DNA of 64,000 nt from a virus (taxonomy: Duplodnaviria > Caudoviricetes), in the IMG/VR virus record IMGVR_UViG_3300028591_000099, positions 64,001-128,000 of that record, one strand, 5' to 3'. The notes under the pieces are model-generated. The model was given only the letters and a program-made list of their open reading frames with translations, had not been told where the DNA came from and ran no database searches. This document shows, piece after piece, positions 36,378 to 61,547 of the stretch; position 1 is the stretch's first letter; each line of letters opens with the position of its first letter. A program made the position numbers and the translations under genes.

Positions 36378-36950
36378 ATGACAGTTGAAGAGATTTATTC
36401 AAACCTAGCCGCACATATGATAAAAGGTCTTATGATACACGATCAAATGGTTGATTACTATTGCTTTTTGAACTTAAAAGGTTATGCGATGTGTCATAAG
36501 TATCACTATATTAGTGAAAATTGAGACTATATGAAATTAAAAAAGTATTATATTAAACATCATGGGAAATTAATTCCAGAAAAATCAATAGAAAATCCAA
36601 AAGTAATACCAAGTAATTGATATAGTCATATTAAGGCTGATGTAGATGTGTCTACTGTGCGGAATGGGGTAAAAACTGGTTTAGAAAAATGGGTAGCTTG
36701 AGAGACAGAAACTAAAGAGTTATATCAAAAAGCCTATAAAGATTTAATTGCTCTTGGCGCAGTCGCAGATGCTAATTTTATATGTTGCTTTATTGAAGGC
36801 GTTGACTGAGAATTAGTGCAAGCAGAGTCATTCCACTTAAAAAAGAAAATAGATGACTTTAGTATTAGTTCTATAACTGGCGACCAAGAATGAAAATATA
36901 AAAAATATTCTGAAAAAATAAGATCACTATTGGAATGTAGTGATGAGTAA
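36378..36950 (+). CDS. Ferritin-like four-helix protein, cassette gene 5 (190 aa; 5 TGA-Trp; absent from ORF track)
   Basis: Open only with TGA=Trp; FLNLKGYAMCHKYHYISE...WVA-W-ETETKELYQKAYKDL...ADANFI resembles ferritin helices. Confidence 0.6.
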
Positions 36951-36993
36951 AAATAAGGGGGTTAGTTATAAAAATTAACCCCAATTTTTTTAT

Positions 36994-37023
36994 TTGACAT
37001 TTCTAGAAAAAATATTGTATAAT
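36994..37023 (+). promoter_or_regulatory. SigA-type promoter for the ORF-hsp20-tRNA unit
   Basis: TTGACA-18 nt-TATAAT right after a terminator-like hairpin. Confidence 0.7.
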
Positions 37024-37047: not shown

Positions 37048-37224
37048 ATGGAGTTATATTTAGATGATTATGAACAGCTTAAAAAGGTAGAGAACTTCTT
37101 ATTCAGATTAATCTATCCAGAGCCTTTTACTTTACACATTTTAATAGACGAGACCAAGGAGCATTTTAATTATACTACAGAGTATAATGATTTAGCGGGC
37201 GGCCTTGTGTTAGTCACTTTTTAG
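37048..37224 (+). CDS. Hypothetical protein (58 aa)
   Basis: RBS AAAGGAG before ATG 37048. Confidence 0.6.
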   Translation: MELYLDDYEQLKKVENFLFRLIYPEPFTLHILIDETKEHFNYTTEYNDLAGGLVLVTF

Positions 37225-37236
37225 GAGGTATTTAAT

Positions 37237-37611
37237 ATGTTATTTGATTATGATTCATTTTTTGATTGGGATAGACCAGCTTATAGTTTTAGTCGTTCAG
37301 TACACGACATGCATCCATATTCTATTAAAACTTTAGAAGATAGAGTTGTATTGGTTCATAACATTGTTGGTGTTAAAGAAGAAGATATCAAGGTTGATAT
37401 TGAAAGAACAGAGGATGGAAGAGACCGACTTGTTATTGAGGGTGTAACTCATAATGATGTATTGAATTATGATTATAAAATTAATTCAAAATTTTATATT
37501 AAAGCTGATATGTTTAAAGATGTAACCTATTATGTTAAGGATGGCTTACTTTATATTGAATTATTCAAAAAAGAACCAGAAGTTACCAAATTAACTGTCA
37601 GAAAAGCATAG
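37237..37611 (+). CDS. Small heat-shock protein (Hsp20/alpha-crystallin-like)
   Basis: RBS AGGAGG; VGVKEEDIKVDIE...LVIEG...VKDGLLYIEL pattern. Confidence 0.65.
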   Translation: MLFDYDSFFDWDRPAYSFSRSVHDMHPYSIKTLEDRVVLVHNIVGVKEEDIKVDIERTEDGRDRLVIEGVTHNDVLNYDYKINSKFYIKADMFKDVTYYVKDGLLYIELFKKEPEVTKLTVRKA

Positions 37612-37636
37612 AGAACACAGAAGTTCTCTACTACAT

Positions 37637-37911
37637 AGGGGTGTCGGTTAATGGTAAGCTCGCGGACTTCAACCGCGTAAGCGTGCAATGGTGCCTTATT
37701 GTAGGGATATAATAAGTGGAGGCAATGATATCGGTGAAGACTAAACTGAAAAGCATGTTAATACCGAGGGAACGAAAGGCCCGTAGAGACTAGATAATTG
37801 CCCAGCTAGATCAGCTGAAGATATAGTCCAGACCACAAACAGTAATGGTAATGAAAATTATAGTGGCAAGCAAACCCGCCAATCCCCGTTCGAATCGGGG
37901 CACCCCTGCCA
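37637..37911 (+). tRNA. tRNA-Trp(UCA), opal-decoding, split by a group I intron (exons 37637-37669 and 37871-37911)
   Basis: Joined exons give 74 nt: acceptor AGGGGTG/CACCCCT, G73, CCA; T arm CCCCG-TTCGAAT-CGGGG; anticodon loop CT-TCA-AA; short variable loop. Confidence 0.85.
37670..37870 (+). mobile_element. Group I self-splicing intron (201 nt, no ORF) in the anticodon
   Basis: P/Q pair TATCGGTGAA / AATACCGAG; R CCGTAGAGACTAG; S GAAGATATAGTCC; P3 GGCAAT/ATTGCC; P8 CAGCT/AGCTG; GNRA-capped P2; preceded by U and ends in G. Confidence 0.85.
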
Positions 37912-37946
37912 AGGAAGTAATCGGCGAATTAAGTCGAAAAATATAT

Positions 37947-37991
37947 AAAAAAAAATAGGGAGAGTATAATTAAATACTCTCCCTATTTTTT
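37947..37991. terminator. Bidirectional terminator between the convergent genome arms
   Basis: A-tract-TAGGGAGAGTAT-loop-ATACTCTCCCTA-T-tract. Confidence 0.8.
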
Positions 37992-38579
37992 ATTTTCATG
38001 GTGTAAATCTTTCATATCTTCTGCAGAAACCAGAACTTCATCAAATGTGCGATCTACCTGATGTTGTTCATCTTCCTTGACTATTGGTAATCTAATAGCT
38101 CTTTCATAATAAGAATCACCTTGAGCATTACCACCTAATTTATTATAGATATGATGTAAATCACTTAATGTATCGAATTGATATTGAGTCATCCAACCTT
38201 GTGCGATATAGGCCTTACAAGCATTGATTAATTGAAATTTATAGAATTGAATATCTTGTTCTTTTAAAACTTTGAAATCTTCTTCAACAGCTTTTAAATC
38301 ATCAACCGCTTCCCAATACATATCACGATAACGTTTAAACTCACTGCTAGTCTCATTCTTAAAATCATTAAAAGTTTTTTCAACACTATTTTTAAAGTCT
38401 TGGCACATTTCTCTAACAATAGATTCAACATGGTCGTGTAAGGCTTGTTGATCATACTTTTCAGCTTTACTCTCTTTTTCATTATGCTGCTTAACAAGTG
38501 TATCTCAAATATATTTGACTAAAAAGCCTCCAAAAGCCACTAAAACGTAGCTTAAAATTGCATCTGCTGAAATATTCAT
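37983..38579 (-). CDS. Membrane-anchored coiled-coil protein (holin-like/lysis-associated), 198 aa; 1 TGA-Trp
   Basis: ATG 38579 in frame with ORF 38408 through TGA at codon 25; N-terminal TM segment; HIYNKLGGNAQGD motif. Confidence 0.6.
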
Positions 38580-56873: not shown

Positions 56874-58229
56874 TTACAGAATATAATTTAAGATGAACAA
56901 GAGATCACTTACTAGAATAATAGGATGAACCTCTTTAATTTTACCTTTACATAATTTTACAAATGTATAAGACCAGAAGCCAAGCATAATACCATTTGTA
57001 ATACCGTATGTGAGAGCCATTGGAACGCTCGCAAATGTTGCTGGAATAGCTTCTTCAAGGTTATCCCATTCAATCTCTTTAAGAGGTGCCATCATCATGA
57101 CAGCTACTACAATAAGTGCCGGGGCGGTTGCTGCGGACGGAATACCGCTAACAAAACCTGCGAAAGGCATGCTAAGTAAGAAGCAAATTGCTACGATTAC
57201 AGAAACTAAACCTGTGCGGCCGCCGGCTCCGATACCGGCTGCGGATTCGACATATGTTGTAGTAGACGAGGTGCCGATCACTGCGCCGATAGGTGTAGCG
57301 ATCGCATCAGCAAACAGCGCACGATCCATTTTAGAAGCCATGCCCTTAGTTTGCTCCATATTATTCAAATCCTCTTCAGAGAAAATACCACTGACCTTAC
57401 CGGTGCCAATAAATGTGCCAATAGTATCAAATAAATCAGATAGTGAGAATGAAAGAATACCAATTAATGTAGGAATAAGATTTTTAATATTACTGAACAC
57501 TTCTGGTAAGCCTTTTGTAATTGGCGTACCAAACCATTGCATATATGCACCCCAAGCTTCACCTACGCTATAACTCGTAGAGAAATTTGTAACTCCAAGC
57601 GGAACTCCTACTGCTGCCGCAATAATAATACCGATCAAAATTGCACCAGTTACATTCTTTAAAAGTAAGAAAATTGTTAATCCTAAACCGATTAAGAATA
57701 CAACTAATACCTGCCAAGAAATAGCAGTATTAATTGCTGGAATACCGAAATTGAAATGAACCAATCCAATATTGCATAATGCAATAAAAGCAATAAACAT
57801 ACCAATACCAGCACCAATTGCGTTCTGTAATGTCTTTGGAATAGCCGTGATAATATATTTACGAATATTCGTGACGGTAATAATAACATTAATAATACCA
57901 GACAGTAAGACAACTGCGATAATACCTTCTGGACTTAAACCAACAAGATATGCAGTATAACCAGCCAGAATGTTAGCAGCAGTATTATTAAGTCCTAAAC
58001 CAGGAGCAGCAGCATATGGAATATTAGCGATTAAGCCAAGCAACAATGTGCTAATTGCAGAAGCAAGAATCGTGGCGATGAACATCGCACCTGGTGCCCC
58101 AAATCCTGTAAGAGTTGCCGGATTGACTACGATAATATACGCCATTGCGGCAAAGGTGGTTAAACCAGCAAGAACTTCACGAGAAACTGTAGTATTATTG
58201 TCTTTTAAATGAAATAATTTTTCTAACAT
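56874..58229 (-). CDS. NCS2 family AzgA/PbuG-type purine (adenine/guanine/hypoxanthine) permease
   Basis: EVLAGLTTFAAMAYIIVVNP, APGLGLN, FDTIGT, TTYVESAAGIGAGGRTGL. Confidence 0.92.
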   Translation of the reverse strand: MLEKLFHLKDNNTTVSREVLAGLTTFAAMAYIIVVNPATLTGFGAPGAMFIATILASAISTLLLGLIANIPYAAAPGLGLNNTAANILAGYTAYLVGLSPEGIIAVVLLSGIINVIITVTNIRKYIITAIPKTLQNAIGAGIGMFIAFIALCNIGLVHFNFGIPAINTAISWQVLVVFLIGLGLTIFLLLKNVTGAILIGIIIAAAVGVPLGVTNFSTSYSVGEAWGAYMQWFGTPITKGLPEVFSNIKNLIPTLIGILSFSLSDLFDTIGTFIGTGKVSGIFSEEDLNNMEQTKGMASKMDRALFADAIATPIGAVIGTSSTTTYVESAAGIGAGGRTGLVSVIVAICFLLSMPFAGFVSGIPSAATAPALIVVAVMMMAPLKEIEWDNLEEAIPATFASVPMALTYGITNGIMLGFWSYTFVKLCKGKIKEVHPIILVSDLLFILNYIL

Positions 58230-59492
58230 TTACTTATCTTCCTTCTCTTTTAAAATTAAGTTTAATAATACGCCAACTACCATAGAGAGTGCTGTACCGC
58301 TGAAAGAATTGGATAAAAACCATATTCCACTAATACCAATCGTTAATACCGCACAAATAATTAACGTATTTTTAGAATCATTAATATCCACAGAATGTAA
58401 AGTGGATAAACCACTTTTTATAATAAAACCATAAAGTATCATACTGCATCCTCCAAAGACACAGCTTGGAATACTATTAATAAATGCTTGAACTGGAGTG
58501 ATAAAACTAAGACTACCCAACAATAAAGCCGCAACGGTAATTACGCGAACTGAAGCCACTCGGCTAAAACCAGTTGTGGCAATAGATTCTCCATAAGAAG
58601 TATTCGGTAATCCACATAATATAGTTCCTAAAAGAGATGCTGTGCCATCACCAATTAATGTTTTATCTAAACCAGGAGTCTTCGTTAAATCTGTTCCAAT
58701 AATATTTGATAATACTTTATGATCGCTAATATGCTCTAACATAGCACAGATTGCGACTGGAGCAAATAACACAATTGTCTGAATAACAACGGAGAGATTT
58801 AAGGATTTTATATCCCATGTCAAAAAGGTGAAATCTGGCAAACTTAATATTGATATTCTACTAAAAACCGAAAAATCAATCATTTTATAGCCAAAGATTG
58901 TTAATAAAATGCACACGATATATCCGAACAGTAGTCCAATTAAGAATGGGATAGTCTTTAAGAATCCTTTACAATAATGAGAACTAATCGCAATTACTAA
59001 CATTGTAAGTAATGCTACGATAATTCCGATATTACTGTGTTCTCCCTCTACTGAAACATATGTGGGAATAAAAGTTGCTAAATTGGCTCCAATTACAATA
59101 GTAACTGCTCCAATAATTGCTGGAGGAAAGATTTTATTAATTGCATTTACCCCTTTGGCTTTAACAAGTAAACCAAATAATAAATAAATTAATGCAATAA
59201 CAATACCACCAACCGCAACCGCAGTATAACCGCCAATCGCAAGTGCTCCTATAACAGCACTACAGGTAGCCCCACTACTGGAAATAAACATTGGACTTGA
59301 GAACCTGGTGATTAATTGATATAATAATGTGCCACAGCAGGCTCCAAATAAACAAGAACTAACTGGTGTCCCGCAGATATTGGCAATTAATACTGTTGCC
59401 ACAAAAACTGCCAATAGCTGTTGAAGGGCATAAAGAAATAATTCTTTAAATGTCCGGGGAGTGTCGTGAATATTATAAATTAAATTATTCAT
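58230..59492 (-). CDS. NCS2 family UraA/PyrP-type uracil permease
   Basis: ALQQLLAVFVATVL, EHISDH, GLPNTSYGES; ATG 59492 after AAGGAGG. Confidence 0.9.
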   Translation of the reverse strand: MNNLIYNIHDTPRTFKELFLYALQQLLAVFVATVLIANICGTPVSSCLFGACCGTLLYQLITRFSSPMFISSSGATCSAVIGALAIGGYTAVAVGGIVIALIYLLFGLLVKAKGVNAINKIFPPAIIGAVTIVIGANLATFIPTYVSVEGEHSNIGIIVALLTMLVIAISSHYCKGFLKTIPFLIGLLFGYIVCILLTIFGYKMIDFSVFSRISILSLPDFTFLTWDIKSLNLSVVIQTIVLFAPVAICAMLEHISDHKVLSNIIGTDLTKTPGLDKTLIGDGTASLLGTILCGLPNTSYGESIATTGFSRVASVRVITVAALLLGSLSFITPVQAFINSIPSCVFGGCSMILYGFIIKSGLSTLHSVDINDSKNTLIICAVLTIGISGIWFLSNSFSGTALSMVVGVLLNLILKEKEDK

Positions 59493-59772
59493 TATCTTCC
59501 TCCTTATATATTTCAAACTCAATTAAATTCATAATAGCATAACTTGCTAAATCTTTAAAAGTATCTTCTAAGGATTCAAAATCATTATGTCCTCCTTTAA
59601 TAAGATTTGTAGCTCTACTTAACTTATTATGAAGAGGGACTAAACCAGAAATTGGCCCAAGAGTATGATATAATACCCCAAAGCTATCTCCATAGTTGGC
59701 ATTTTTCTTTTCATAAAGATCTGCCATTGATGTTGCTATTTCTCGAAAACGCTCAACTTTATTCACAGCCAA
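59485..59772 (-). CDS. Nucleotide-modification-associated domain 1 (Nmad1/DUF1599-like) protein
   Basis: KKNANYGDSF...KLSR...ESLEDTFKDLASYAIM. Confidence 0.75.
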   Translation of the reverse strand: MAVNKVERFREIATSMADLYEKKNANYGDSFGVLYHTLGPISGLVPLHNKLSRATNLIKGGHNDFESLEDTFKDLASYAIMNLIEFEIYKEEDNE

Positions 59773-60304
59773 GATTTGCTACCTCCTGGTTAAACTCTGG
59801 AGCAATTTTTTTCATATATTCAATAACATCTCCAATATTATTCACTAAAATTCCTGATTCTTTAATACATCCCACAACATATAAATTTTGATAAGAATAT
59901 TGCTGTTCACAAATATCTGCGGCCGCACCCATATCTTTAGCTTCACTATGTGTGCGAGAACATTCTCTATTATCGGTGCAAATACCAATAATATATTTAT
60001 GGTCTCCTCTGCGGATTTTTTCTCTCATAACACCGATTTCAGCACATGTCCCACTAGGTAATACATCACCATCAATGCACGCAATTAATACATCTGTATT
60101 ATCAAGACGAGCGTTGTCTCCATCAGCAATTAATTTTGAGCCAGCAAATTTCTTTTTTCCTTCGATTCCATTAATTTCTGTATTTTCGATAGGTGAGTAT
60201 AAATCAATACCAGGAAAGACTTTTCTTATCCTATCTGCCCAGATAGTATTTCTATAATAATCTCCTTCATAGAAAATACTACCAGCTAAATATACTTTCA
60301 TCAT
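59759..60304 (-). CDS. Nucleoside 2-deoxyribosyltransferase / dNMP N-glycosidase family protein
   Basis: KVYLAGSIF, YSP, DVLIACIDG, SGTCAEIG, QNLYVVG. Confidence 0.8.
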   Translation of the reverse strand: MMKVYLAGSIFYEGDYYRNTIWADRIRKVFPGIDLYSPIENTEINGIEGKKKFAGSKLIADGDNARLDNTDVLIACIDGDVLPSGTCAEIGVMREKIRRGDHKYIIGICTDNRECSRTHSEAKDMGAAADICEQQYSYQNLYVVGCIKESGILVNNIGDVIEYMKKIAPEFNQEVANLGCE

Positions 60305-60316
60305 ATATTTTCTCCT

Positions 60317-60583
60317 TTATATTGTACCGCCGAATCCAAGGCATTTACATCCAATAACTTCTAAAAATTCATCTATATCATCAAAATAAGCATTATTATT
60401 ATTGTAATCAGATGTTTGTAAAAAATCATTATATGAAATTATTTGTATTGAATATCCATAGGCATATGCTTTTACTTGCATAGCTTCTGGATTTTTACAA
60501 ACAAAAATTGCTTTATCTTTTTCACATAATTCCATAATTTTTTTAGTTTTTCCAGACCCAGCTGGACCTATAATTTTAACCAT
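60317..60583 (-). CDS. Small P-loop protein
   Basis: GPAGSGKT and YFDDID. Confidence 0.6.
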   Translation of the reverse strand: MVKIIGPAGSGKTKKIMELCEKDKAIFVCKNPEAMQVKAYAYGYSIQIISYNDFLQTSDYNNNNAYFDDIDEFLEVIGCKCLGFGGTI

Positions 60584-61547
60584 TTAATTCTCCATCCTTG
60601 TTGCCTTGAGTGCTATTAAATCCTCAAGCGGTACTATCATAAAAATCAATCCAATAACGTTCTCTTTCATTTAATTTATTTCGAGAACATTCTTCTAAAA
60701 TTTCATACATAAAATTTTCTGGACCAAGTGTTTTCATTTCAGTGTAAAATCTATTATTTCAAGACCCAATTCCAAGACCAGCTTTTATATGGTCTCTAAA
60801 TCTATTTCTAATATCAACAGACTGTCCAATATAACACTGTCCTGAATGGATATTAGTAATCTTATAAATGCCACAATATGTTTTTCCAGTAGGAGTTAAC
60901 CTACCAAGTAAATCCATAGTTGGTTTTTTATAATATACTTCCCATATAACTTTATTAACCGGTAATGGGTCACATTTTAACTCTTTTACAACTTCTTTTA
61001 AACACTTAATATCTCATAACTCATCTTCTGAAATTTTAATTTTATAAAAATCTTTTTGATTTTCTTCTAAAATTCTGCGTTTATCCGCTTCAATGGCTGC
61101 GGCCTGCTTGCTTTTTAAGTCAGCAAGTTCTTCTTGTTTAAGGGTAATTTTACCAATTAATTTAGCCAATTCAGCAGCATTTTCTTCAACTAATTTTAAA
61201 TACTGTTTCTTATATTCTTCTTCGGCTTTTTGATATTTTGCTCCCGCAATTTCAGCAGCCTGAGACATCCGTTCTTGCATTAAATCATAAGATTTTTTAT
61301 ATATTTCATTAGCCGCCACTGTTGCTTGCGAACTAATTTGCTTAATGTCTTCATTAAGTGAGACCTTTTGACGTTCTAATGCTCGATTTTCAGTCTCCGC
61401 AGAAGCGATATCCGCAGTCAATTTATTTCATTCTTGTTTTAATTGCCCATTAATTTTAACTTGTTCAATATCTTGCTTATGCTTTGGAATAAGATATATT
61501 ACTAATAAAACTAATGCAGCAATAATACCTATTCAAATATATTGCAT
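60576..61547 (-). CDS. Membrane-anchored coiled-coil GIY-YIG nuclease, 323 aa; 5 TGA-Trp
   Basis: MQYI-W-IGIIAALVLLVIYLI TM segment; long coiled coil; CGIYKITN...CYIGQSVDIRNRFRDH...NERERYWI...GFN. Confidence 0.8.

Follow-up and report, generated by a model that had tools for sequence, protein, structure and literature searches.

The virus record analysed here carries what its sequence identifies as a Trp-type, opal-decoding tRNA gene whose UCA anticodon exists only once a group I intron has been removed between positions 34 and 35. Our preferred reading, to which we assign a probability of about 0.8, is that of a functional opal-suppressor gene carrying a tolerated self-splicing intron, splicing being required and regulation by the intron unnecessary in sister phages. 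The window, i.e., the whole 64,000-nucleotide stretch of DNA that was analysed, spans positions 64001-128000 of an IMG/VR virus record that is 160,981 bp long and has a rated completeness of 93%; the GC content of the window is 35%. Unless stated otherwise, positions are those of the window.

TGA Recoding in the Phage Genome

On the + strand, the ORFs become much longer once TGA is read as a sense codon. TGA and TGG are used in a complementary manner by the two modules of the genome, with 6.45 TGA and 5.57 TGG per 1000 codons in the late module (genome 22.9-101 kb, + strand) versus 0.96 and 13.5, respectively, in the early replication module (103-159 kb, - strand). The 46 late ORFs contain 160 in-frame TGA and the 44 early ORFs contain 14; every ORF counted ends in TAA or TAG. 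Tail-fibre-like proteins, an NAGPA endolysin-like protein and a RuvC-like resolvase are among the products of the TGA-bearing genes; the early-module genes include those for Pol III alpha, NrdD/NrdG, DnaB, an NAD-dependent ligase and dUTPase. The presence of a Pol III alpha-type polymerase indicates that the phage is not crAss-like.

With regard to the meaning of the codon, a TGA occupies the W position in RWNTSNVTN, the hallmark motif of DUF285. The NAGPA endolysin-like protein has a TGA at residue 331, where W is found in 13 of the 15 aligned sequences (the query counted), and W is likewise favoured at the remaining TGA positions of this protein. Judged from codon usage and alignments, TGA is decoded as Trp in the late genes, and the early module is almost TGA-free. 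Since the early genes nearly lack sense TGA, the host probably uses the standard code.

Two features of the early module are worth recording in their own right. A free-standing GIY-YIG endonuclease ORF (60576-61547, - strand) carries five in-frame TGA within an otherwise TGA-free module, recalling the intron endonuclease that is preferentially recoded in Agate phages (10.1101/2021.08.26.457843). In addition, a tandem pair of xanthine/uracil permease genes (56874-58229 and 58230-59522, - strand) and a nucleoside 2-deoxyribosyltransferase gene (59759-60304, - strand) point to nucleobase salvage, which is unusual in a phage.

Anatomy and Detection of the Split tRNA(UCA) Gene

The original prediction placed a 74-nt tRNA(UCA), split after U34 by a 201-nt intron, at 37637-37911, and these coordinates proved exact: when introns were allowed, ARAGORN returned a single tRNA(tca) over this interval, i(34,201), and the joined exons form a 74-nt cloverleaf with the anticodon tca (Table 1). 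The 3' exon supplies the 3' strand of the anticodon stem, a short variable loop, the T arm, the 3' strand of the acceptor, G73 and CCA. The predicted junction of the ligated exons reads GGACUU/CAAACCCGC. The joined molecule is of type I, with a short variable loop, a 7/5 acceptor/T arm arrangement and an encoded CCA, and it displays the A1-U72 pair and G73 that had been put forward as Trp identity features. G73 and A1-U72 are the identity elements by which TrpRS recognises bacterial tRNA-Trp. Charging with Trp is thus to be expected from these elements and from the codon alignments. In the anticodon stem (37662-37666/37875-37879), an A31xC39 mismatch at the bottom leaves 4 bp. This mismatch is found in one lineage, formed by the window phage and locus L079, the sister tRNAs having five anticodon-stem pairs. 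Anticodon stems of 4 bp in tRNA-Trp have been linked to UGA reading (PMC13092985).

Table 1. Features of the suppressor cassette, the split tRNA(UCA) gene and its intron (window coordinates).
Feature	Position	Strand	Remarks
Terminator-like hairpin with T run	36958-36982	+	Ends the preceding late gene (36378-36950, five in-frame TGA)
Promoter TTGACA-18-TATAAT	36994-37023	+	12/12 sigma-70/SigA-type consensus; start of the cassette
Small ORF, 58 aa	37048-37224	+	TGA-free; AAGGAG ribosome-binding site upstream
13-nt segment GTAGAGAACTTCT	37087-37099	+	Inside the small ORF; codons K-V-E-N-F-L
124-aa ORF	37237-37611	+	TGA-free; weakly alpha-crystallin/Hsp20-like
Hairpin TAGAGAAC/GTTCTCTA	37609-37630	+	Overlaps the stop of the Hsp20-like ORF; 6 nt 5' of the tRNA; no T run
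tRNA(UCA) 5' exon	37637-37669 (33 nt)	+	Acceptor 5' strand, D arm, anticodon stem to U34
Group I intron	37670-37870 (201 nt)	+	No ORF; IC3-like by resemblance; first base C, last base G (omega G)
Internal guide sequence UGGUG	37689-37693	+	Directly 5' of P2; partner of P1 and P10 (sequence model)
P2 hairpin CUUAUU/AAUAAG	37695-37716	+	Compensatory change in 5/6 pairs
Catalytic core	37721-37829	+	P3, P4, P5, P6, P7, P8; J8/7 AAGAUA
P3	37721-37726/37797-37802	+	Pseudoknotted with P7
P4	37731-37735/37763-37767	+	
P6	37768-37782	+	
P7	37786-37792/37824-37829	+	Pseudoknot with P3
P8	37803-37817	+	
P9 with inner P9a hairpin (GAAA loop)	37833-37866	+	Followed by CAAG and the 3' splice site
tRNA(UCA) 3' exon	37871-37911 (41 nt including CCA)	+	Begins with C35 A36
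Bidirectional intrinsic terminator	37950-37991	.	Late (+) and early (-) modules converge here

In a 551-nt search (37500-38050), the Rfam family Intron_gpI (RF00028) matched positions 37675-37852 with 34.9 bits and an E-value of 3e-7, below the Rfam gathering score of 50. Williams 2020 (10.1101/2020.01.27.920355) worked at 18-20 bits because the Rfam seed contains no bacterial introns. Over the whole window, default ARAGORN found no tRNA and an Rfam E-value search returned nothing, the split-tRNA intron included; at the gathering score, Rfam matched nothing either. With all three scans blank, the gene is demonstrably missed by automated scans, as had been anticipated.

Fold and Splice Sites of the Intron

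The assignment to group I, made earlier from the letters alone, is borne out by the Intron_gpI match and by a fold that holds in 17 phage tRNA introns, 12 from tRNA(UCA) and five from tRNA-Leu or tRNA-Ile, aligned with P7 counted as a pseudoknot. In this alignment, 95.2% of the cells of the P1-P9 fold are paired, compared with 30-40% when the partners are slid; compensatory changes occur in 27 of the 48 pairs, and none of 500 shuffles matched the observed values. Covariation is strong in P2, P3, P8 and P9a, and P7 shows a C-G to G-C swap. These compensatory substitutions keep the core helices across lineages, which argues for selection on the fold. Every P3-P9 core pair can form in the window intron, which also contains the motifs GUAGAGACUAGA and GAAGAUAUAGUCC. 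The 3' core shares 80-90% identity with group I introns of Crassvirales dnaB genes, and a motif scan of the genome revealed no further copies of the core.

At the splice sites, U at position -1 and a final G are present in all 12 UCA introns. In the P1 model, C32 pairs with G, U34 forms a G.U wobble at the splice site, the first two intron bases form C1-G and A2-U pairs, and U33 faces a U. The four pairs of this short P1 are present in 12/12 UCA introns and, being invariant, yield no covariation signal either way. The initial CA of the 3' exon can pair with the guide UGGUG as P10; the start of the intron, CAACC, resembles that of the 3' exon, CAAAC, because both can pair with this guide. The Leu and Ile introns have GAG at the place of UGGUG. 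Two other P1 registers were rejected, namely, AAG (intron positions 10-12), which is unconserved in sister introns and lacks the G.U wobble, and a GAG overlapping P3, which is likewise unconserved. Overall, the intron is a minimal P1-P9 unit with no spare domain and no fused aptamer, and an Rfam search of 37500-38050 found no riboswitch or other sensing RNA family up to an E-value of 10.

The Suppressor Cassette

The split tRNA closes a cassette in which a terminator is followed by the promoter, the 58-aa ORF, the Hsp20-like ORF, a hairpin, the tRNA itself and a bidirectional terminator. The SigA-type promoter proposed in the original prediction was recovered with a full consensus match. The two ORFs upstream of the tRNA are indeed TGA-free, but the 'hsp20' label given to one of them is weak, the 124-aa product matching Pfam HSP20 with an E-value of 0.0022 and 18.5 bits, under the cut-off of 20.8. 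In sister loci, a TTGAC-17/18-TATAAT promoter, the ribosome-binding site and the small ORF are kept despite differing upstream flanks.

The 13-nt segment of the small ORF listed in Table 1 is perfectly complementary to 37619-37631, which comprises the loop and 3' arm of the hairpin before the tRNA. A complement of 11-17 nt, with compensatory changes, was found at each of the 13 loci checked (the window and 12 sisters), with or without the intron. The duplex that the small ORF and the leader could form may be a target of RNase III, or may couple maturation of the tRNA 5' end to translation.

A Single UCA Decoder

The 161-kb record contains 24 tRNA genes, and only the split gene has a UCA anticodon. 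ARAGORN detects 22 others, clustered at 139-148 kb and including a tRNA-Trp(CCA); a tRNA-Gly(GCC) (genome 143007-143077, minus strand; L039:15007-15077) is found by Rfam, and by ARAGORN only at a relaxed score. An intact tRNA(UCA) elsewhere in the phage had been named as evidence that would speak against the original prediction; ARAGORN and Rfam revealed no second UCA tRNA in the 93%-complete record. Genes for a release factor or TrpRS are likewise absent from the 161-kb record. The tRNA-Trp(CCA) is unrelated to tRNA(UCA), with 42/74 identical positions, and its anticodon stem is normally paired, not shortened. The claim that the TGA-bearing genes depend on the split tRNA can thus be upheld in a narrower form: among phage-encoded decoders, and over 93% of the genome, their dependence on the spliced tRNA(UCA) is a fair inference.

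A tmRNA gene lies on the minus strand of the record at genome 138397-138751 (L039:10397-10751). It matches Rfam RF00023 with 101 bits, and the tag predicted for it, ANFVKNIIAKVKNFFAPSYQVTFAC, is unusual. This phage tmRNA could handle ribosomes that read through host UGA stops.

Sister Loci and History of the Intron

The survey of related phages that had been suggested was carried out through the Hsp20-like protein, which is encoded at 14 loci of viral contigs with 80-96% identity. The hairpin and a tRNA(UCA) lie directly behind it in 14/14. An intron is inserted after U34 at 11 of these loci, which represent about six sequence lineages, one of them with an insertion of about 120 nt in P6. The other three loci (L086, L087 and L091), near-identical to one another, harbour an uninterrupted tRNA(UCA). 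Default ARAGORN detects the tRNA(UCA) of these three, but nothing in the intron-bearing L089 and L082. In-frame TGA are present near the intron-less tRNA(UCA), and L086 contains long TGA-containing ORFs. A tree built from the hsp20-like gene pairs the clade without the intron with the intron-bearing L089 (support 86/88). When this tree is rooted at its midpoint, the clade takes a nested position, which under that rooting fits a single intron loss.

These intron-less alleles were located by synteny, not by junction sequence. The spliced anticodon arm GCGGACTTCAAACCCGC gave four matches in viral contigs, all of them chance occurrences in coding DNA without a tRNA, and the short pattern CTTCAACC..GGTGCCTTAT gave 39 viral matches, mostly chance ones in ORFs.

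The UCA introns of the clade cluster together, separately from the Leu introns (support 94/93), and their divergence from the window intron is 17-27%, which indicates that the association between intron and tRNA is old. Another phage tRNA(UCA) gene, in L027, is interrupted at the same U34/C35 site by a related 605-nt group I intron that encloses an ORF for a PD-(D/E)XK endonuclease (PF11645, E-value 1e-18; L027:10129-10614, - strand), showing that tRNA(UCA) introns of this kind can be mobile.

When viral contigs were scanned for two core motifs, 33 loci were recovered, many of them tRNA genes split by related introns, namely tRNA-Leu(UAA), tRNA-Ile(UAU) and, in several cases, tRNA(UCA); the intron family is present in at least 21 viral contigs. 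No true match to it was found among 185,579 species-representative genomes, the sole bacterial hit, in a Parabacteroides MAG contig, being a chance match in a coding region (translation ...DVHDIGKNIV...). Several automated calls in this set had to be rejected. ARAGORN assigned long-arm 'SeC' tRNAs to L014, L018, L025 and L034 by taking the P9a hairpin of the intron for the 3' half of the anticodon stem, and Gln(ttg) to L023; by alignment, the former four are type I tRNA(UCA) and the latter is tRNA-Leu(UAA), each split after U34. A more distant gene with a UCA anticodon (L053:7977-8236, + strand) is split by a group I intron of 236 nt; its D region is odd and its extra arm is long, and it may be Sec-like or have a second arm. 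In Agrobacterium phage Atu_ph07 (L004; MF403008.1, ~112.8-113.2 kb), where the annotation shows hypothetical proteins only, ARAGORN with introns allowed identifies a tRNA-Leu(UAA) gene interrupted by a group I intron of 278 nt.

Comparison with Known Systems

The closest parallel is the tRNA-Leu(UAA) intron of cyanobacteria and plastids ('Leu.3Ug', IC3), which occupies the same U34/35 insertion site (Williams 2020, 10.1101/2020.01.27.920355); that study gives 21 tRNA/site settings in bacterial genomes. Both introns have U-1 and omega G, are small and ORF-less, and share the P1-P9 core. The tRNA-Leu(UAA) introns of viral contigs are 55-71% identical to the window intron and share its covarying helices. 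However, the cellular intron resides in a sense-codon tRNA, whereas here the host gene is an opal-suppressor Trp-type tRNA of a phage. In addition, the GAG of the Leu introns pairs perfectly with CUU, whereas UGGUG leaves a U33xU mismatch. The PF11645 endonuclease of L027 is of the I-Ssp6803I type, known from the cyanobacterial tRNA-fMet intron, but the window intron itself has no ORF.

That recoded phages encode suppressor tRNAs is well established (Yutin 2021 PMC7886860; Borges et al. 10.1101/2021.08.26.457843; PMC12386605). As in the present record, recoded gut phages use TGA for Trp mainly in late, structural and lysis genes, keep the standard code in early genes, and carry their own tRNA(UCA) within a large tRNA set. 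In those three studies the suppressor genes are contiguous, whereas the present one is split by an intron. Two of them, dealing with crAss-like phages (PMC7886860 and, for Zeta, PMC12386605), also report recoded genomes without a detectable suppressor. A ribozyme has already been coupled to suppressor maturation, with a proposed role in code switching, in the case of the theta (HDV-like) ribozymes adjacent to phage suppressor tRNAs (PMC10879173). These cut the 3' trailer, outside the tRNA, whereas an intron in the anticodon demands both excision and exon ligation.

As for control by a signal, a group I ribozyme of Clostridioides difficile is reportedly placed under allosteric control of a c-di-GMP-II riboswitch (work attributed to Lee et al., 2010). 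To our knowledge, it is the one established case of signal-gated group I splicing. There, a ligand-binding aptamer is fused to the intron; in the present case, no riboswitch match lies in or beside it. Table entries of Williams 2020 aside, full-text searches found no published description of a phage suppressor tRNA interrupted by a group I intron.

Functional Interpretation

In the reading that we favour, the consensus sigma-70-type promoter of the cassette would drive transcription of the tRNA and of the two TGA-free ORFs. The intron would fold as P1-P9 and excise itself in a guanosine-initiated, two-step reaction, with the 5' site after U34 (in its wobble with a G of UGGUG), the 3' site after the terminal G, and the CA of the 3' exon entering P10. 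The ligated 74-nt tRNA would then be processed at its ends, charged by the TrpRS of the host, and would read as Trp the ~160 in-frame UGA of the structural, tail and lysis genes. The intron is most plausibly a tolerated element, once mobile, that has been inherited as part of the cassette; its retention in most lineages without an endonuclease is also compatible with an unseen benefit.

The original prediction went further and proposed that the ribozyme could act as a timer or sensor that switches on the alternative code. Self-splicing that is slow or conditional, depending on GTP, Mg2+, folding or competition between the anticodon stem and P1, would then time the expression of the TGA-bearing late and lysis genes. 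The split tRNA is the sole UCA decoder of the record, and its consensus host-type promoter implies that any delay would be post-transcriptional; even without a homing endonuclease, the intron persists at 11 of the 14 sister loci and in lineages that have diverged by 17-27%; its weak P1, with the U33xU mismatch in place of the perfect CUU/GAG pairing of tRNA-Leu introns, is conserved; and the theta ribozyme offers a proposed precedent in suppressor-tRNA maturation and code switching (PMC10879173). The weak conserved P1, the constitutive-looking promoter and the long endonuclease-less retention are compatible with a timer but are not evidence for one. Against it, the three sister loci that combine an uninterrupted tRNA(UCA) with in-frame TGA indicate that the recoded lifestyle does not need the intron, no aptamer or known regulatory RNA family is present in 37500-38050, and genes of gut phages commonly harbour small group I introns without an ORF as passengers (PMC12363816, PMC7886860). 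On these grounds the proposal of a timer or sensor was not sustained, and we consider a splicing-gated switch unlikely. Slightly more doubtful is the specific version in which the intron, perhaps together with the duplex between small ORF and leader, slows or conditions suppressor maturation, such that the ribozyme sets the moment of passage from code 11 to code 4. If it were true, a switch set by a ribozyme would unlock the tail and lysis genes.

That the gene is instead an unspliced relic, UGA being read by a host tRNA, by a decoder encoded in the 7% that the record lacks or by the near-cognate tRNA-Trp(CCA), appears improbable. The Rfam score below the gathering score, the mismatch in P1, the existence of a phage tRNA-Trp(CCA) and the incompleteness of the record, at 93%, would agree with a dead gene, but compensatory substitutions maintain the core helices across lineages, and all of these lineages retain U-1, omega G and an intact exon cloverleaf. 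Moreover, ~160 in-frame TGA in late genes require an efficient decoder, and the tRNA-Trp(CCA) has a normally paired rather than a shortened 4-bp anticodon stem and is unrelated in sequence to tRNA(UCA), at 42/74 identical positions. Insertion of an amino acid other than Trp, either Sec or, as in code 25, Gly, is the least credible of the alternatives, with a very small chance of being correct: the SeC label of ARAGORN is given to any UCA tRNA, whereas the short variable loop and 7/5 arms of a type I tRNA, A1-U72, G73, the alignment of TGA with conserved Trp, and the complementary use of TGA and TGG between modules all speak for Trp.

Significance

An intron-split suppressor gene is one concrete way in which a recoded genome can appear to lack a suppressor. 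As default ARAGORN sees the uninterrupted sister allele but not the split ones, tRNA searches that allow for introns can be expected to uncover at least part of the 'missing' suppressors, and thereby improve code prediction and annotation. The natural intron-bearing and intron-less alleles share one cassette, so that it can be tested whether the intron has a cost or exerts any control. If splicing proceeds as predicted from the sequence, the translation of all structural and lysis genes in this phage clade would rest on a single act of RNA catalysis.
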